In this document: piece by piece, positions 8,938 through 49,493 of the stretch
Layout: every line of letters starts with the position of its first letter
How positions within the stretch are numbered: position 1 is the first letter of the stretch
Assembly: GCA_016179185.1 (NCBI GenBank)
Contig: JACORW010000059.1
Location: forward strand, 1,400 to 65,399
Direction: 5' to 3'
From: Gammaproteobacteria bacterium
GTDB lineage: Bacteria; Pseudomonadota; Gammaproteobacteria; Eutrophobiales; Eutrophobiaceae
Length of the DNA: 64,000 nt
Notes under the pieces: generated by a model
Database searches by the model: none
The model's input: only the letters and a program-made list of their open reading frames with translations
Told to the model about the DNA's origin: nothing
Translations under genes and position numbers: made by a program

Positions 8938-10419
8938 TCACCGCGGCAGATCGGAATATCCCATGAGGAACTCGTCCACCGCGCGGGCGCACTGGCGGCC
9001 CTCGCGGATGGCCCACACGATCAGTGACTGGCCGCGGCGCATGTCGCCGGCGGCGAACACCTTGTTCACCGACGTGGCATAGCAGCCGGCGCCGTCCGTG
9101 GTCGCGCGCGCATTGCTGCGCGCGTCTTTCTCCACGTTGAACGTGTCGAGGATGTCCGCGGCCGGGCCCATGAAGCCCATGGCCAGCAGCACGAGATCCG
9201 CCTTCAATTCGGACTCGGATCCCGGCACCTCCTCCATTTTCAATTGGTCCGTGGCCGCATCCGTCTTCCACTCCAGCCGCACGGTGGTCAGGCTCGTGAC
9301 CCTGCCGTCCCTGCCGTTGAAACGCTTTGTGGCCACGGAGAAATCGCGCTCGCAACCCTCTTCCTGCGACGACGACGTACGCAGCCGCGTCGGCCAATAG
9401 GGCCACACCGGATTGTGCTCCACGTCCGGCGGCATCGGCAGCAATTCCAGCTGCGTCACGGATTTCGCGCCGTGGCGATTGGACGTGCCGACGCAATCGG
9501 AGCCGGTATCGCCGCCGCCGATGACGATGACATGCTTGCCGGCCGCGCTCAGTTCCGGCACGCCCTTGTCGCCGGCGACGCGGCGGTTCTGCAACGGCAG
9601 GAACTCCATGGCGAAATGCACGCCCTTGAGTTCTCTCCCCGGCACCGGCAGATCGCGCGGCGCTTCCGCGCCGCCCGCCAGCACCACGGCGTCGAACTCC
9701 GCGAGCAATCGCTCCGGCGCGATGGTCTGGCGGGCGTCATTGGTGACGCCGGCGCCGGGGCCCTGCCCACCGACATAAATGCCGGGGCGGAACGTCACGC
9801 CTTCCGCCGCCATCTGCGCGAGGCGCCGGTCTATGACGGGTTTCTCCAGTTTGAAGTCCGGGATGCCGTAGCGCAGCAGCCCGCCGATGCGGTTATTCTT
9901 CTCGAACACGGTGACCGCATGCCCGCGCCGCGCCAGTTGCTGCGCGCAGGCCAGGCCGGCCGGCCCCGATCCGACCACGGCAACCGACTTCCCGCTTCTG
10001 TGAGCCGCCGGTTCCGGCCGGACCCAGTCATTTTCCCAAGCGCGATCGATGATGGCGTGCTCGATGGATTTGATGCCCACCGGGTCATCGTTGATGCGCA
10101 GTACGCAGGCCTCTTCGCACGGCGCCGGGCACACGCGGCCGGTAAACTCGGGAAAATTGTTCGTGGAGTGCAGCGTACCCAGTGCGTTGCGCCAGTCCTG
10201 GGCGTAAACCAGATCGTTGAAATCCGGGATGATGTTGTTGACCGGGCAGCCGCTCATGCAGAACGGGATGCCGCAGTCCATGCAGCGCGCGCCCTGGATG
10301 CGCGCGTCATCGTCGCTGATGGGCCGGATGAACTCGCGGAAATGCCTGCGCCGCTGGTCCGGCGACTCGTGCGGCTCGTCGAGGCGCGAGTACTCCATAA
10401 AACCCGTGATCTTGCCCAT
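8938..10419 (-). CDS. gltD: glutamate synthase (NADPH) small subunit
   Basis: 493 aa. [10 protein letters not shown] iron-sulfur motif and [14 protein letters not shown] dinucleotide fold. Immediately downstream of gltB. Confidence 0.95.
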
Positions 10420-10430
10420 TCTTTTATCCG

Positions 10431-10515
10431 TAGCTACAAGCTACAAGCCACAAGCAACAAGGGAAACACTCCGTGGCTTGTGTCCTTGTAGCTTGTCGCT
10501 TGTTGCTTGTAGCTG
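10431..10515. repeat. heptamer-armed hairpin, GCNACAA/TTGTNGC family (copy A1)
   Basis: Left arm GCTACAA GCTACAA GCCACAA GCAACAA. Right arm TTGTAGC TTGTCGC TTGTTGC TTGTAGC. Occupies most of the 99-nt gltB-gltD intercistronic gap. Confidence 0.8.
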
Positions 10516-10518
10516 CCT

Positions 10519-13500
10519 TCAAGCCGCATTCCTGCCATTCACTTGCGCCAGTTCTCCCAACGCCCTCCGGTACTCCTTCGGAAACACCTTGATGAACCGG
10601 CCGCGCCACTCGCTCCACGCAGCCAGGATCTCCGCGGCGCGTTTGCTGCCGGTGTGTTGCGCGTGCCGCTGGAGCATCCGCCGCACGATGACCTCGTCGG
10701 CCTCGCCGTGGTGCCACAACGCCGGAGGCAGCTTCGCCTGCTGTTCCTGTTCCGGCGCTACGGGCTCCAAGTCCACCATCGCGGGATTTACCAGTGCCGC
10801 CGCCCGGCCGTCCTGGTCCAGCACATAGGCGATGCCGCCGGACATGCCCGCGGCAAAGTTGCGTCCAATGCCGCCGAGTACCAGCACCGTGCCGCCCGTC
10901 ATGTATTCGCAACCATGATCGCCGACGCCTTCGACGACCGCCTCGGCGCCTGAATTGCGCACCGCGAAGCGTTCGCCGGCGACGCCGCAGAAATACGCCT
11001 CGCCGGCGATGGCGCCGTACAGAACCACGTTGCCCGTGATGATGTTCTCCCCCGGCGCGCCGCGGAATTTCGGTGACGGCTGCACGCTGATGCGTCCGCC
11101 GGACAACCCCTTGCCGCAGTAATCGTTGGTGTCGCCGACCAGATCGAGCGTAATGCCGCGCGCCAGGAAAGCGCCGAAACTCTGTCCTGCGGACCCGCGC
11201 AGGCGGACATGAATGGTGTTGTCCGGCAGACCGTCGTGTCCGTAGCGCTTCGCGACGTGCCACGACAGCATCGTGCCCACGGTGCGGTTTACGTTGCGGA
11301 TCGGCACGTCAATGGTCACCTTTTCGCGCCGTTCCAGTGCCGGCGCAGACAGTTCGATCAGGCGGTTGTCCAGCGCGCGTCCCAGCCCGTGGTCCTGCTG
11401 CGCGCAGTGGTGGCGCGCCACCTCCGCGGGCATCTCCGGCAGGTGGAAGATGCGCGAGAAGTCCAGCTTCCTCGCCTTCCAGTGTTCGATGCCGCGGCGC
11501 GTATCCAGCAGATCGGCGCGACCGATGAGGTCATCGAACCTGCGGATGCCGAGCTGGGCCATCAGTTCGCGCGCCTCTTCGGCGACAAAAAAGAAATAAT
11601 TGACCACGTGCTCCGGCTTGCCCGTGAACTTCCTGCGCAATTCCGGGTCCTGCGTCGCCACGCCCACCGGGCAGGTATTGAGATGGCATTTGCGCATCAT
11701 GATGCAGCCTGCGACCACCAGTGGCGCGGTGGCAAAGCCGAACTCGTCGGCGCCCAGCATCGCGCCGATCACCACGTCGCGGCCGGTCTTCATCTGCCCG
11801 TCCACCTGCACCGAGATGCGCCCGCGCAGCCGGTTCAGCACCAGTGTCTGCTGCGTCTCGGCGAGCCCCAGTTCCCACGGCGAACCGGCGTGCTTGATGG
11901 ATGACCATGGCGAAGCCCCGGTCCCGCCGTCGTGGCCGGCGATGGTCACATGGTCGGCCTTGGCCTTGGCAACGCCGGCGGCGATGGTGCCGACACCGGT
12001 CTCGGATACCAGCTTGACGCTGACGGCTGCTTCCGGGTTGGAGTTCTTGAGGTCATGGATCAGCTGCGCCAGATCTTCGATGGAATAAATATCGTGGTGC
12101 GGCGGCGGACTGATCAGTTCCACGCCCGGGGTCGCGTAACGCAGTTCAGCGATGTACTCGGACACCTTGCGCCCGGGAAGCTGGCCGCCCTCGCCCGGCT
12201 TCGCGCCCTGCGCGATCTTGATCTGCAGCATCTCGGCGGAGGCAAGGTACTCGGCGGTGACGCCAAAGCGCCCCGACGCCACCTGTTTTATTTTTGACTT
12301 CAGCGAATCGCCGGGCTTGAGCGGGATGTCCACGACCACGCGCTCGTCCCCGAGCCGGCCCTGCATCGTTTCACCGGCGGCGATGGGCGCATAGCGGCGC
12401 CGATCCTCGCCGCCCTCGCCGGTATTACTGCGCCCGCCGATGCGGTTCATGGCCACCGCCAGCGTCGCGTGCGCCTCGGTGGAAATGGATCCCAGCGACA
12501 TGGCGCCGGTGGAGAAGCGCTTCACTATTTCCGCCGCCGGTTCGACTTCCTCGATGGGTACCGGCTTGCACGCGTCGAACCGGAACTCGAACAGTCCGCG
12601 CAGCGTCAACAACCGCTCCGACTGATCATTGATGAGCCGTGCATATTCCTGGTACGTGGCATGGGAATTGCCGCCGGTGGCATGTTGCAGTTTGGCGATG
12701 GCGTCCGGCGTCCACATGTGTTCCTCGCCGCGGACGCGATAATGGTATTCCCCGCCGGCATCCAGCGCGCCGGCCAGCACCGGGTCATCTCCGTAGGCGG
12801 CGCGGTGCATGCGGATGGCCTCGTCCGCCAGTTCAAAGATACCGACGCCCTCCACCGTGGACGTGGTGCCGGTGAAATACCGATCCACGATGGCCCGAGA
12901 CAAACCCACCGCCTCGAAGACCTGCGCGCCCGTGTAGCCCATGTACGTGGAGATGCCCATCTTCGACATGACCTTCTTCAGTCCCTTGCCGATGGCCTTG
13001 ATGTAGTTTTTGCACGCCTTCGCCGCATCGAGCCCGCCCGTCAGCCCGCACGCCGCCAGATCCGAAACCGTCTCCAGCGCCAGATAGGGATGGATCGCCT
13101 CGGCGCCGTAGGCGCCCAGCAACGCAAAATGATGCACCTCCCGCGCCGACCCGGTCTCCACCACAAGCCCGGTGGACGTGCGCAGCCCCTTCGACACCAG
13201 GTGCTGGTGCACGGCCGACAACGTGATCAGCACCGGGATCGCCACGTTGTCGCGATCCGCCTTGCGATCCGAGATGATCAGGATCCCGCAGCCGGAGCGG
13301 GCCGCGTCCGCGGCCTGGGCGCACAATGACGCCAGCCCCGCTTCGATGGCCGCCCTGCCCCACGCCACAGGATAGGTGGAATCCAGTTCGTAGGAGCGGA
13401 ACTTGCCCTCGGTCCAGCGCTCGATGTGCCGGATTGTCTCCATCTGGTTGAAGTCCAGAACCGGTTGCGACACCTCCAGCCGCAACGGCGGGTTCATTTC

Positions 13501-44129: not shown

Positions 44130-45089
44130 ATGACCCTCACGGAACTGCGCTACATCGTCGCCGTCGCCCGCGAGCGGCATTTCGGCCGCGCCGCGGCGGC
44201 GTGCTTCGTCAGTCAGCCGACGCTCAGCGTCGCCGTGCGCAAACTCGAGGATGAACTGGGCGTCGTGCTGTTCGAGCGGCATCAGCACGACGTCGCGATC
44301 ACGCCCGTCGGCGAGCGCATCGTGGAGCAGGCGCAACGCGTGCTGGAACAGGCGGGCGCCATCAAGGTCCTGGCCGGGGAAGGGCGCAACCAGTTGCACG
44401 GCGAGGCGCGCCTCGGCGTCATCTACACCGTCGGGCCGTATCTGCTGCCACGGCTGATCCCCGAACTGAATCAACGGGCACCCGCGCTGACACCCATCAT
44501 TGACGAGGACTTCACCGCCAATCTTGCGGTGAAACTGCGCCAGGGCTCCCTGGACATGGCGATCCTGTCAACGCCGTTCGATGTCCCCGGCATCGAGGTG
44601 CGGGTGCTGTACACGGAACCGTTCGTGGTGGCCCTGCCCAGGGGGCACAAACTCGCCGGACAGCGCCAGATACAGGCCGATGACCTGGCGCGCGAGACAT
44701 TATTACTGCTGCGCGCCGGAAACTGCTTCCGCGATCAGGTACTGGAGGCCTGCCCGGCCTGCCGCGGCGAAACTTTTTCCCGCACCGGCATCCAGAAGAG
44801 CCTCGAGGGCAGTTCCATTGAAACTATCCGGCAGATGGTGGCGGGCGGGGCCGGCGTCACGGTGCTGCCGGCAATGTCGATCCGCACCGAAAGCGGCATG
44901 GACAAGCTGCTGGTTTACCGGCCCTTTGCCGATCCGTCACCGCGGCGCGAGGTGGCGCTGGCGTATAGAGCCACGTTTCCGCGTCCAAAGCTCGTGGACT
45001 TGATTTCCGATACCGTTGCGGCTTGCAATCTTCCCGGCACATTAATAGCCACAAGCAACAAGCCACAAGCAACAAGTAAAACAACATAG
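44130..45089 (+). CDS. oxyR: LysR-family peroxide sensor OxyR
   Basis: 319 aa. HTH region RHFGRAAAACFVSQPTLSVAVRKLEDELG. The redox cysteine pair lies in GNCFRDQVLEAC (compare E. coli GHCLRDQAMGFC). The last 13 codons lie in repeat A2. Confidence 0.85.
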   Translation: MTLTELRYIVAVARERHFGRAAAACFVSQPTLSVAVRKLEDELGVVLFERHQHDVAITPVGERIVEQAQRVLEQAGAIKVLAGEGRNQLHGEARLGVIYTVGPYLLPRLIPELNQRAPALTPIIDEDFTANLAVKLRQGSLDMAILSTPFDVPGIEVRVLYTEPFVVALPRGHKLAGQRQIQADDLARETLLLLRAGNCFRDQVLEACPACRGETFSRTGIQKSLEGSSIETIRQMVAGGAGVTVLPAMSIRTESGMDKLLVYRPFADPSPRREVALAYRATFPRPKLVDLISDTVAACNLPGTLIATSNKPQATSKTT

Positions 45090-45131
45090 TGTTCGTCTTC
45101 ACCTTGTAGCTTGTGGCTTGTTGCTTGTGGC
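45048..45131. repeat. heptamer-armed hairpin (copy A2, near-perfect stem)
   Basis: Left arm GCCACAA GCAACAA GCCACAA GCAACAA. Right arm TTGTAGC TTGTGGC TTGTTGC TTGTGGC. Lies between the convergent oxyR and protease genes. Confidence 0.8.
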
Positions 45132-45142
45132 TTTCTTTAAAG

Positions 45143-46516
45143 CTATTTAATCACCAGGAATGCGGCCGCATTGCCGCGGATGACGCGCAGCAACAATGGT
45201 TCCTGCCTGCGATCCACCGCGGCGAGGAACTCATCCAGCTTCGTCACCTTGGCGTGATTCACCGACGTAATGATGTCGCCCTGGCGCAGGCCGCCGCGCC
45301 ACGCCGGACTGCCGGGTTCGACATGTTCGACTTCGACCCCCTGGACCTGTCCGGCCAGGGGATGGTCCGGGCTCAAGTTGCCGACCGTCACGCCGTTCAA
45401 TTTCGGGTTGACGGCACGCGGGCCGCCGCCATCCTCGCTGCTGCGGGCCGCAACCATTGCGTTCAGATCGCGCCGTTTTCCGTCGCGCAATACGGAGAAT
45501 GAAACCTTTTCGCCGACCTGCAGCAACCCGATATGATTGCGCACGTCGCCGGCGTTGCGCACGGCTTTGCCGTTGATCTCGACGATGACGTCGCCGGCCT
45601 GCAGTCCCGCTTTGGCTGCCGGAGAATCAGGCACGACGCTGTTCACGACCGCGCCCTGCTGTTTCTCCAGCCCGAAGGCGGCGGACAGGTCCGGCGTCAG
45701 GTCCTGCACGGTGATCCCGACTGACCCGCGCTCCACGGCGCCCTTCTCCACCAGTTGCTCCATGATTTGCAGCGCCATATTGATGGGGATGGCGAAACCG
45801 ATGCCGATGTTGCCACCGCTCTGGGAGAATATGGCGGTGTTGATGCCCACCAGTTCGCCGCGCAGGTTGACCAGCGCGCCGCCGGAATTTCCGGGATTGA
45901 TGGAGGCATCGGTCTGGATGAAATCCTCGTAACCTTCGATCCCCAGGCCGCTGCGGCCCAGCGCGCTGACGATGCCGGAGGTCACGGTCTGGCCGAGACC
46001 GAACGGGTTGCCGATGGCAACGACAAAGTCGCCGACGCGCAGGGATTCGGAGTTCGCCGTGGGCACCGCGCGCAACCCCTCCGCCGGCACCTTGATCACG
46101 GCCACGTCGGTATCCGGGTCGGCGCCCACGACCTCGGCCTGAACATGCCGGCCGTCGCGCAGCGTGACCGCGATCTCGACGGCATTGGCAACCACGTGAC
46201 TGTTGGTCAGCACCAGCCCGCGTTTCGCGTCCACGATTACACCCGAGCCCAGCGCCTGCGTCTTGCGCTCGATGGGACCCTGGGGGATGTTGAAAAATCG
46301 GCGGAAAAACGGGTCCGCCAGCAATGGATTGTTCTGCAGCACGACGCGCCCCTCGGTGGCAATGTTCACCACCGCCGGCGTCACCTGTTCCAGCATCGGC
46401 GCGAGGCTGGGCAGCGGTTGATCTTCGACGGACTGGGGCAATGCCGGCCATGCGGCACCGGCGGTCAGCGACAGCAGCAGTGCCGTCGCCGTGAATACGG
46501 AATCCTTCAATGCCAT
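45143..46516 (-). CDS. periplasmic serine endoprotease, DegP/DegQ (HtrA) family
   Basis: ORF 45143..46720 trimmed to ATG 46516, because the upstream part is hairpin repeats. Signal peptide, catalytic GNSGGAL and two PDZ-like regions. Confidence 0.9.
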
Positions 46517-47249: not shown

Positions 47250-47258
47250 GGGGAAATG

Positions 47259-47350
47259 ACAAGCTACAAGCTACAAGCTACAAGCTACAAGTACATGGAT
47301 CGCAGTGTTCAGTTTGGGTTCCTTGTCGCTCGTTGCTTGTAGCTTGTGGC
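47259..47350. repeat. heptamer-armed hairpin (copy A3)
   Basis: Left arm four GCTACAA units. Right arm TTGTCGC TCGTTGC TTGTAGC TTGTGGC. Lies between the coq7 stop and the sigma-32 promoter. Confidence 0.8.
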
Positions 47351-47355
47351 TGCCT

Positions 47356-48003
47356 TTATATCCGGTACGCCGTTGTCGTCATCACCCGCGCGGCCAGGGA
47401 CATGAGGCTTCGCACCGGTTCCGGCAGCTCGACCGCACCATTGCGCACAGCCTGGGCTGCATGCCGGCTTTCGTCATCGCGCATCTGGCGGACGATTTCC
47501 CGGCTGGGCAAGTCAGCGGCGGGCAGCATTCCCAGATGGGACTCCAGGTGCCGCACCACCTGTTGCTCGGTCTCGGCGACGAAACCCAGCCCCCAGCGAT
47601 CACCCAGCAGGCTGGCCACGGAGCCGATGGCAAAGGAGCCGGCATACCAGAACGGCCGCAACAGGCTGGGGCGGCTCCCCAGCGCCGCCAGCCGCTGTTC
47701 GCACCAGGCCAGGTGATCGGATTCTTCCTGCGCGGCCTGTTCCATGGCCTGCCGTGTGCGGTGGTCCCGCGCCCAGAACGCATGGGCCTGGTACAACGCC
47801 TGGGCCGCGATTTCGCCGGCATGGTTGACCCGCATCAGGCCGGCGGCGTGGCTGCGCTCTTCGGGTGTCAGTCGCCCGGCCTCACTCAATCCACCGGCGG
47901 GGTTTGCGCGGGAGGCATGGGCGGGACGGCCGAACGCGGCGCCCAGCACGCGATCGAGCCCGATGATCAGCCGATCCAGCGGCGTAAAATTGCGCGGTTC
48001 CAT
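47356..48003 (-). CDS. coq7: demethoxyubiquinone hydroxylase (di-iron Coq7 family)
   Basis: ORF 47356..48102 trimmed to ATG 48003. Di-iron motifs GEIAAQALY, EESDHLAW, ETEQQVVRHL and DESRHA. Confidence 0.88.
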   Translation of the reverse strand: MEPRNFTPLDRLIIGLDRVLGAAFGRPAHASRANPAGGLSEAGRLTPEERSHAAGLMRVNHAGEIAAQALYQAHAFWARDHRTRQAMEQAAQEESDHLAWCEQRLAALGSRPSLLRPFWYAGSFAIGSVASLLGDRWGLGFVAETEQQVVRHLESHLGMLPAADLPSREIVRQMRDDESRHAAQAVRNGAVELPEPVRSLMSLAARVMTTTAYRI

Positions 48004-48955: not shown

Positions 48956-49412
48956 GCAACAAGCCACAAGCTACAAGCCACAAGGAGGTGGCAATGGATG
49001 CGCTCAGCGAATTGAATGTCTGGCGCCGCAGCAAATCTCTGGCCGTGAATATCTATCGGGCCATGTCAGTGTGTCGGGATCGGGCGTTCAAGGAACAAAT
49101 CACGCGAGCGGCAGTATCAATTCCCTCGAACATTGCCGAAGGCTATGAACGCTCGTCGCGCAAAGAGTTCGCACGCTACCTGCAGATTGCTCGGGGATCG
49201 TGTGCGGAATTGAGAACGCAAATCCAGATCGGCCAGGATATTGGATACTTCAGCAAGGAGCATGGAGACAATCTGTTAAAGGAAGCACTGGAGTTAACCA
49301 AGATGATGCAAGCACTCATCAACCGGTGCCGTGCTTCCAGCCAGCAATGACGGATTGTTGTGGTGAACTTCTTTTACTTGTAACTTGTAGCTTGTCGCTT
49401 ATAGCTTGTTGC
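48956..49412 (+). mobile_element. IVS-like stem-loop element: heptamer arms (copy A4) enclosing a four-helix-bundle gene
   Basis: Left arm GCAACAA GCCACAA GCTACAA GCCACAA GG (48956-48985). Right arm TTGTAAC TTGTAGC TTGTCGC TTATAGC TTGTTGC (49376-49412). A single ORF sits between them. Confidence 0.7.
48994..49350 (+). CDS. four-helix-bundle protein (23S rRNA intervening-sequence protein / Avd-like family)
   Basis: 118 codons from ATG 48994, 5 nt after AAGGAGG. LAVNIYRAM...ITRAAVSIPSNIAEGYERSSRKEFARYLQIARGSCAELRTQ is the family signature as I know it. Confidence 0.88.
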   Translation: MDALSELNVWRRSKSLAVNIYRAMSVCRDRAFKEQITRAAVSIPSNIAEGYERSSRKEFARYLQIARGSCAELRTQIQIGQDIGYFSKEHGDNLLKEALELTKMMQALINRCRASSQQ

Positions 49413-49419
49413 TCTCCTC

Positions 49420-49493
49420 TGGGGGATCGTCTAACGGTAGGACAGCGGACTCTGACTCCGCCAGTCTAGGTTCGAATCCTAGTCCCCCAGCCA
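49420..49493 (+). tRNA. tRNA-Gln (anticodon CUG)
   Basis: Manual cloverleaf. Acceptor TGGGGGA/TCCCCCA. D stem GTCT/GGAC. Anticodon stem GCGGA/TCCGC with loop CTCTGAC. T arm CTAGG-TTCGAAT-CCTAG. Discriminator G and encoded CCA. Confidence 0.9.

Follow-up and report, generated by a model that had tools for sequence, protein, structure and literature searches.

A genus-wide family of heptamer-armed extragenic palindromes just downstream of stop codons in a gammaproteobacterium of the Eutrophobiaceae

Three short hairpins that contain no complete open reading frame (ORF), here called A1, A2 and A3, lie in a 64,000-nt stretch of gammaproteobacterial DNA (the window; positions 1,400 to 65,399 of contig JACORW010000059.1, assembly GCA_016179185.1), and each consists of tandem GCNACAA heptamers on one arm and complementary TTGTNGC heptamers on the other. 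They belong, as members without an ORF, to a family of heptamer-armed extragenic palindromes, 80-95 bp long, that is found throughout the genus. Six bases of each unit are held invariant and the seventh, N, drifts freely, as does the loop. The heptamer is lineage-specific, changes in concert, and tracks the arms of the gene-bearing cassette of its own genome even at orthologous sites. The same architecture brackets the gene carried by a fourth hairpin of the window, A4, and an rRNA intervening sequence (IVS) in helix 45 of a relative. On balance, we lean towards the view that A1-A3 are ORF-less transcribed palindromes, similar to IVSs or to repetitive extragenic palindromes (REPs), that are kept uniform by a sequence-specific trans-acting factor.

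The window contains 18 matches to three tandem GCNACAA units, compared to 0.00 in 100 dinucleotide shuffles. A preliminary description of this DNA located three gene-less hairpins and their gene-bearing sibling; all three gene-less loci were recovered to within 2 nt, and the left-arm N values listed for A1-A4 are correct. The tandem heptamers and the complementary arm were also confirmed; each arm has four units, and the loops are 25, 28 and 32 nt. The features are as follows, with arms and loops read from the sequence and given without strand.

10433-10460: A1 left arm, four GCNACAA units with N = T,T,C,A
10461-10485: A1 loop, 25 nt, GGGAAACACTCCGTGG..., of a subfamily common to copies on contigs C33 and C100
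10486-10513: A1 right arm, four TTGTNGC units with N = A,C,T,A
10519-10521, minus strand: gltB stop codon (TGA), separated from the A1 arm by 5 nt
10417-10419, minus strand: gltD start codon, 13 nt past the other A1 arm and without a strong Shine-Dalgarno (SD) sequence
45048-45075: A2 left arm, four GCNACAA units with N = C,A,C,A, forming the translated tail of the oxyR-like ORF
45076-45103: A2 loop, 28 nt, holding the present oxyR-like stop codon (45087-45089)
45104-45131: A2 right arm, four TTGTNGC units
44130-45089: oxyR-like ORF, running through the A2 left arm and ending in the A2 loop
47263-47290: A3 left arm, four GCTACAA units (N = T,T,T,T)
47291-47322: A3 loop, 32 nt, GTACATGGATCGCAG...GGGTTCC, resembling the loop of a copy on contig C67
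47323-47350: A3 right arm, four units, one of them the variant TCGTTGC
48956-49412, plus strand: A4, the cargo-bearing sibling, with arms at 48956-48983 and 49378-49412 and left-arm N = A,C,T,C
48994-49350, plus strand: ORF in A4 for a four-helix-bundle protein (PF05635 by Pfam); A4 lies between rpsI and a tRNA gene (49420-49490)

The 99-nt gap between gltB and gltD is filled by A1, and the mRNA at this junction reads TGA-AGGCA-GCTACAA, from the gltB stop codon into the arm. At A3, the coq7 stop codon (47356-47358, minus strand) is 5 nt from the element and the mRNA junction reads TAA-AGGCA-GCCACAA; a degenerate unit, ATGACAA, precedes the left arm at 47256-47262. The stop codon of the DegP-like gene (45143-45145, minus strand) is 11 nt past the right arm of A2. 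As first described, A2 does lie between the oxyR-like and DegP-like genes, but the oxyR-like ORF does not end before it: the ancestral stop codon has been lost, and the ORF gains a 14-residue tail (ATSNKPQATSKTT) from the left arm. Pfam assigns the neighbours as GltD-type, LysR/OxyR-like, DegP-like, Hsp20, COQ7 and RpsI proteins, in addition to the PF05635 protein of A4. The sequence of A1 recurs unchanged in independent Logan contigs from two groundwater metagenomes, on contigs of a length too small to reveal empty alleles.

The three hairpins belong to a much larger population. The genome from which the window comes (G000) is a draft of 2.58 Mb in 115 contigs, estimated at 86% complete. When an arm is defined as at least two exact GCNACAA units, it contains 102 arms and 40 arm pairs, or about 50 elements. 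The original suggestion of a dispersed family with modular heptamers and one free position is thus correct, while its count of three more loci was far too low. Exactly four units are found in 71 of the 102 arms; the number ranges between 2 and 7, and some of the arrays are long and homogeneous. Loops of this family (family A) are typically 25-35 nt and are not conserved. Read in the GCNACAA direction, the half-element consensus is RAAAR-N-C-A, then (GCNACAA)4, then G-(G/T)-A-A-A-A, with A at position -1 in 74 and G at position +1 in 73 of 76 half-elements. The conserved flanking bases imply that the stem reaches beyond the 28-nt arms. Similar loops at unrelated loci (13 pairs above the 99.9% null threshold, against 0.5 expected) indicate that whole elements have been duplicated. 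An Rfam search of the window returned tRNA only.

Four further heptamer families of the same general design occur in this genome, with the units GCCAC[CT]A, GTGNAAA, CGTGAAG/CGTATCT and GTYAYAA, and the genome has 207 arrays of period 7, none of period 8 and 3 of period 9. The GCCAC[CT]A / TGGTGGC family is very abundant outside the window (about 74 arrays, of up to 19 or more units each, on contigs C6, C7, C24, C58, C59, C81, C91, C93, C94 and others), and its arrays often form pairs that enclose a semi-conserved spacer of 45-60 nt with CTTGACA. Many contigs end in such arrays, arguing that the arrays break the assembly. Composite arms, in which GCNACAA-type units run directly into GTYAYAA-type units, are found at about 14442-14498 of C94, 9942-10005 of C101 and 2379-2445 of C18; these may be intermediates of heptamer switching or nested insertions. 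The window itself holds a fifth heptamer hairpin, at 985-1082, which belongs to the GTGNAAA family. Its left arm reads GTCGAAA GTCAAAA ATAAAAA GTGAAAA GTGAAGA, its right arm CTTCTCA CTTTTCA CTTTCCA CTTTTCA CTTTTCG, and its loop is about 27 nt; the same unit flanks the syntenic four-helix-bundle cassette of G005, a genome of another genus.

The elements are strongly concentrated at the 3' ends of genes. With gene positions taken from a crude gene call based on GC content at third codon positions, a gene 3' end lies within 15 nt of an arm in 27 of 38 short elements, most often at 2-7 nt, where random intergenic placement would give 3.2%. Only 1 of 37 elements lies between divergent genes, compared to about 18% expected. 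The REP-like placement in transcribed gene junctions that had been proposed for A1-A3 therefore extends to the family. The spacer that remains after subtracting the element has a median of 18 nt, and so the elements occupy junctions where the genes almost abut. At 11809-12502 of contig C44, beyond the window, tRNA genes alternate with three family-A hairpins, and the same three sites in G003, another member of the genus, carry GTYAYAA hairpins. Placement of this kind matters for annotation and expression: elements 2-12 nt past stop codons can rewrite C-termini, as in the oxyR-like gene, and they split operon junctions that were once translationally coupled, such as gltB/gltD, in addition to breaking short-read assemblies.

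Comparison with relatives shows that the sites are stable. Matches to three GCNACAA units number 145, 62, 14 and 21 in the four genomes of the genus (G000, G001, G002 and G003, respectively). The family also occurs in one other genus of the same family of bacteria (G021, 14 matches), and it is absent from 36 other relatives. The hairpins of G001 and G003 were mapped onto the window's genome through their flanks, and nearly every site occupied in these two species is also occupied here, with the same boundaries. At orthologous sites with GCNACAA arms in both species, the six fixed bases are identical at 240 of 240 positions and N at 17 of 40 (33% expected at random). The coding flanks of orthologous sites are 74-82% identical and the loops are mostly unalignable. 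Thus, the constraint is extreme on the sequence of six of the seven bases, and not merely on pairing. The copies are old, and they have been passed on by inheritance at fixed positions just past stop codons.

The heptamer at such a fixed site can nonetheless be exchanged. At least 10 sites carry GTYAYAA in G003 where this genome has GCNACAA, and other sites carry yet other families. The hairpin between gltB and gltD follows the same GCGGC(T/G)TGAA boundary in three species of the genus, with arms of GCNACAA here, GTYAYAA in G003 and the GTGAAGC/CGTATCT type in G001; in two other genera the gltB stop codon overlaps the gltD start ATG (ATGGGTAA) and there is no hairpin. Loop homology between orthologues is clear in two of six A/A pairs and one of eight E/A pairs, which does not separate conversion in place from replacement. 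The A2 site is empty in G005, where the oxyR-like and degP-like genes overlap tail to tail, and in G002 and G003 it holds unrelated palindromes of the GGGGTCAG type. At loci orthologous to the A2 and A3 sites (L140 and L141, on contigs C150 of G003 and C309 of G002), a different long palindrome was noted, GGGGTCAGGTCTTGCAATCATGCATCC..., which sometimes adjoins GGGGATC/GGGGACC heptamers. The same 3'-end junctions are contested by palindromes of different families.

The free position deserves separate treatment, because it had been described as hypervariable. The predicted stems are indeed 6-bp helices broken by 1x1 mismatches at N, as claimed; A1 has three mismatches, A3 has two at N and one extra, and A2 has one. 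With 28-nt arms and about 5 bp of junction pairing, the predicted folding energies of A1-A3 are -43 to -58 kcal/mol as RNA (z from -5 to -11) and -23 to -36 kcal/mol as DNA. Across the family, N is T in 49%, C in 23%, A in 16% and G in 12% of units. Co-variation of N across the arms, which had been suggested as a check, was not found and is rejected: N is complementary in 34 of 143 cases against 47.7 +/- 4.9 in a position-stratified shuffle (P = 0.002), and is therefore anti-correlated across arms. Adjacent units within one arm also share N less often than expected (71 of 300, against 96.8). The GTYAYAA family has two variable positions, likewise without co-variation (96 of 168, against 90.7). 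N is not a compensating position. The other six bases are identical at every position compared between species, and N is best interpreted as the single base of the unit that is left unconstrained, rather than as a specially diversified one. The mild excess of mismatches at N may reflect the survival of imperfect palindromes and imperfect tandem arrays, which would be more stable in DNA. Adenine mutagenesis of the kind carried out by diversity-generating retroelements was considered as an origin of N and rejected, since adenines elsewhere in the unit do not vary and no reverse transcriptase is present in the genome.

What connects these gene-less hairpins to a protein is the cassette A4. Its gene is the only PF05635 ('23S rRNA intervening-sequence protein') gene detected in the genome, and its arms are the same as those of the gene-less hairpins. 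In G001, G003, G005 and G021, inverted heptamer arrays bracket six of seven distinct PF05635 genes, with a heptamer that differs from cassette to cassette, and one of these cassettes lies in helix 45 of 23S rRNA. This last case (locus L156, at about 60.3-60.8 kb of contig C1 of G021) is an IVS with a PF05635 ORF and with arms of [A/T]TCAGAT heptamer arrays, and it ties the classic IVS directly to elements of the heptamer-armed kind. In G000, G003, G005 and G021 a syntenic cassette lies between rpsI and tRNA-Gln, with arms of GCNACAA in G000 and G021, GTYAYAA in G003 and GTGNAAA in G005. The hairpin population follows the cassette: G000 has 145 GCNACAA against 20 GTYAYAA matches, G003 has 21 against 60, and G005 has 0 GCNACAA and 11 GTGNAAA matches. 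The gltBD hairpins of G003 and G001 also use heptamers of their own genomes' cassettes. A second cassette site, between mrp and dcd, falls in a region that is missing from this genome's assembly.

The association extends beyond these relatives. Genes similar to that of A4 were sought across many phyla with a search seeded by four syntenic orthologues, an alignment of seven proteins being too divergent. Runs of period 7 flank the gene on both sides at 44 of 78 loci, compared to 0, 2, 12 and 8 loci for periods 5, 6, 8 and 9. Octamer inverted arrays (period 8) were seen in some cassettes from other phyla (loci L204, L212, L231, L239 and L245). Halopseudomonas salina and Pseudomonas neustonica, both cultured, contain 355 and 241 triple GCNNCAA matches, which is the heptamer of their own cassette arms, against 0-1 for controls in the same two genomes, and many of these matches are short inverted pairs. 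A cross-phylum scan for four GCNACAA units found 115 loci, nearly all of them single direct arrays outside this family; a few, such as a cassette in Chloroflexota, have inverted arms around a PF05635 gene.

Uniformity of this kind would result from a sequence-specific trans-acting factor that reads the heptamers, or copies them anew, and thereby holds all copies to one form. The most plausible candidate would be the PF05635 protein, by analogy with the REPIN-RAYT system. Its solved relatives form pentamers (PMC4990558), and in each arm a degenerate unit accompanies the four perfect ones. When transcribed, the elements may fold out as a stem of about 33 bp, which could explain why cistron junctions tolerate them; where such a junction was formerly coupled, the folded stem would re-join the upstream stop codon and the downstream start codon. 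The stem may also be a substrate for RNase III, a barrier to 3' exonucleases, or an obstacle to a ribosome terminating 2-12 nt upstream. Such RNA-level functions (RNase III cleavage, ribosome stalling, coupling) are inferred. An rnc (RNase III) homologue is present in the genome. REPs no more than 15 nt from a stop codon reportedly stall ribosomes, according to work of Liang, Rudd and Deutscher in Mol Cell in 2015. The 28-bp stem of the Coxiella IVS is cut by RNase III in vitro (PMC4990558), and the heptamer-repeat hairpin in a 5' untranslated region (5' UTR) of H. influenzae is also an RNase III substrate (PMC12721329).

Several observations weigh against this account. In the one sequence test able to reveal pairing at the RNA level, which bears on the mRNA processing or stability role first suggested, an excess of G.U over A.C mismatches on the transcribed strand was not seen (16 G.U and 19 A.C in family A, 12 and 17 in family E), so that nothing points to selection on RNA rather than on DNA. 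We know of no catalytic activity for PF05635 proteins. The genome has five heptamer families and a single detected PF05635 gene, in an assembly that is incomplete and breaks at arrays. The cassette could also be just one more site of the same homogenising process, which would by itself produce the match between its arms and the dispersed heptamers. Finally, by eye the A3 loop (ATGGATCGC) and a loop of G003 (GAGGTGCAAATGGACG) look like the SD-ATG and 3' end of the cassette, but the similarity of loops to the ends of the cassette ORF is not significant (best P about 0.025 among 62 loops), so that loss of the ORF is no more than a possible origin of the empty hairpins.

A broader proposal, which we regard as possible though doubtful, is that PF05635 proteins and inverted heptamer hairpins form one genetic system like REPIN-RAYT, which would also explain the rRNA IVSs and the excess of heptamer repeats in bacteria. 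A pentamer made from the cargo-bearing copy might recognise, in each arm, the four to five heptamer-like units and drive the copying or re-writing of all gene-less hairpins in the genome. The whole hairpin population would then switch heptamer together, as from GCNACAA to GTYAYAA between sister species.

Among the alternatives to a uniform transcribed palindrome, two are unlikely yet still deserve detailed consideration. The first holds that the elements are selfish DNA akin to miniature inverted-repeat transposable elements, in which the heptamer arrays are binding sites for a transposase or recombinase, as are the subterminal repeats of Tn7 or Mu ends. The elements would then have no RNA role, and stop-codon adjacency would reflect the choice of target. 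The distribution is what such elements might show, being limited to the genus and one other of the 38 sampled with a variable copy number, and so are the sharing of loops between unrelated loci, the cleanly empty A2 site of G005, the conservation of the outer ends as CA...TG, and the lack of an RNA-specific pairing signal. However, no consistent target-site duplication is seen in the flanks or at the filled and empty A2 site, and no transposase lies inside or beside any copy, the sole cargo-bearing copy encoding a four-helix bundle. No array of period 7 lies within 1.5 kb of any of the genome's four Y1 transposase genes, the closest family-A arm on a shared contig being more than 13 kb distant. 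The lack of a reverse transcriptase also counts against this model. At most sites the occupied boundaries agree between species that are only 74-82% identical, with perfect arms and scrambled loops, which neutral, decaying transposon copies would not be expected to show.

According to the second of these improbable alternatives, the elements work as DNA: a sequence-specific protein, for instance one with a nucleoid, roadblock or recombination role, would bind the arrays as double-stranded sites or as cruciforms, and the potential to form a hairpin would be a by-product of two convergent arrays. Conservation of a six-base sequence and not just of pairing fits well with this idea, as no compensatory variants occur in about 50 copies or between species; the variable positions are unpaired, G.U and A.C mismatches are symmetric, and arm length is fixed at four units. 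Against it, the elements are almost entirely confined to transcribed 3' junctions and keep clear of promoter regions. In addition, a 23S rRNA gene contains this design too, and the stem there is known to function at the RNA level (PMC4990558), and RNA hairpins with heptamer arms are proven RNase III substrates elsewhere (PMC12721329).

It is far less probable still that the elements are microsatellites made in place by replication slippage and quasi-palindrome template switching, with no trans factor and no mobility. The range of 2 to 7 units and the long homogeneous arrays are suggestive of slippage, and slippage combined with arm-to-arm templating within one element could allow a site to persist while both arms change heptamer. 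This mechanism leaves unexplained why one heptamer occupies about 50 unlinked sites and another those of sister genomes, why unrelated loci share loops, and why there is a sharp mode at four units (71/102 arms). Equally remote is the idea that these are ordinary intrinsic terminators that happen to consist of repeats: the elements do lie downstream of stop codons and A2 is followed on the plus strand by TTTCTTTA (a T-rich tail, on one strand only), but A1 is inside the gltBD operon without a T-run on the mRNA strand, loops of 25-32 nt and stems of about 30 bp are unlike canonical terminators, the next gene starts within about 10 nt of many copies, and no terminator call spans a whole element among A1-A3 in a scan that allows only 3-8 nt loops, its sole match (47339-47353, in the A3 right arm) being a 6-bp local stem.

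Of the known systems, the rRNA IVSs are among the closest to a uniform palindrome of the kind favoured here. IVSs carry an ORF in Leptospira and Coxiella (S23p/PF05635) and lack one in Salmonella and others. The hairpins described here similarly have terminal inverted repeats and occur with or without a PF05635 ORF in the loop, and both kinds of insert fold out of a functional RNA, as predicted in the present case. The stem of about 28 bp also corresponds, with four heptamers here and 28 bp in Coxiella (PMC4990558). In contrast to IVSs, A1-A3 are between protein-coding genes rather than in rRNA helix 25 or 45, there are about 50 copies per genome, and the arms repeat with a strict period that leaves one base of each unit free. 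A1-A3 also differ from the ORF-bearing subclass of IVSs in that their 25-32-nt loops hold no PF05635 ORF, which is found only in A4.

The resemblance to REPs, to bacterial interspersed mosaic elements, and to REPIN-RAYT systems is of another kind. A REP is an imperfect palindrome of 20-40 nt, and a REPIN consists of two inverted REPs. Like these, the present elements are short extragenic palindromes located just 3' of genes in tens to hundreds of copies, with a species-specific consensus and with site occupancy that persists between related species. As in REPIN-RAYT systems, the repeat also flanks a gene that is present once and is inherited vertically. However, the arms here are direct heptamer arrays without an internal palindrome, so that the hairpin forms only between arms. 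A RAYT association was looked for and rejected, since none of the four PF01797 genes is near (within 1.5 kb of) period-7 arrays; no RAYT/Y1 protein is associated with the elements, the flanked gene encodes a non-enzymatic four-helix bundle, and the loops are not conserved. The elements therefore resemble REP/REPIN and IVS stems alike, yet lack what defines either family (a RAYT, a palindromic unit, a place in rRNA).

Heptamer repeats as such have been described several times. The hmw 5' UTR of H. influenzae contains a heptamer array, (ATCTTTC)n, that forms one arm of a long mRNA hairpin, and cleavage by RNase III is needed there for changes in repeat number (PMC12721329); this is a single 5'-UTR locus with a G-rich opposite arm that serves phase variation, and not a dispersed family. 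Xanthomonas has intergenic GGGAATC heptamers with 70-75 convergent inverted pairs, and heptamers of this type are also found in Nostoc (Rehm et al. 2015, PMC4692102). Other examples are the four-heptamer elements of Geobacter (PMC2700814) and the TAACTGA repeats of the Beggiatoaceae (PMC4679880). The Xanthomonas-type repeats are the nearest of these in form, being intergenic tandem 7-nt units, often in convergent pairs able to form a stem-loop, and those of both Xanthomonas and Nostoc are lineage-specific, dispersed and of unexplained function. They differ in that GCNACAA/TTGTNGC has no G-tract and no potential to form a G-quadruplex, and neither the four units, nor stop-codon adjacency, nor a link to a PF05635 cassette is reported in the papers on Xanthomonas, Nostoc, Geobacter or the Beggiatoaceae. 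The claim that the architecture is unusual can be kept in part: no named family was found in Rfam or the searchable literature, though inverted intergenic heptamer arrays were already known from Xanthomonas (PMC4692102). Nor did the searchable literature yield any account that describes the family, its adjacency to stop codons, the exchange of heptamers at orthologous sites, or the agreement between PF05635 cassettes and hairpin arms.

These comparisons bring together two long-standing puzzles. An excess of heptamer repeats in bacteria has been noted several times (for Xanthomonas, Nostoc, Geobacter and the Beggiatoaceae), with no mechanism given, and the origin of rRNA IVSs and the role of their ORF form the second puzzle. 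Conserved sites, six invariant bases, concerted replacement and the match to the cassette combine the two into one testable hypothesis, in which a sequence-specific reader would maintain a population of satellite hairpins, and the unexplained 7-base repeats of bacteria may belong, together with the IVSs, to one system.

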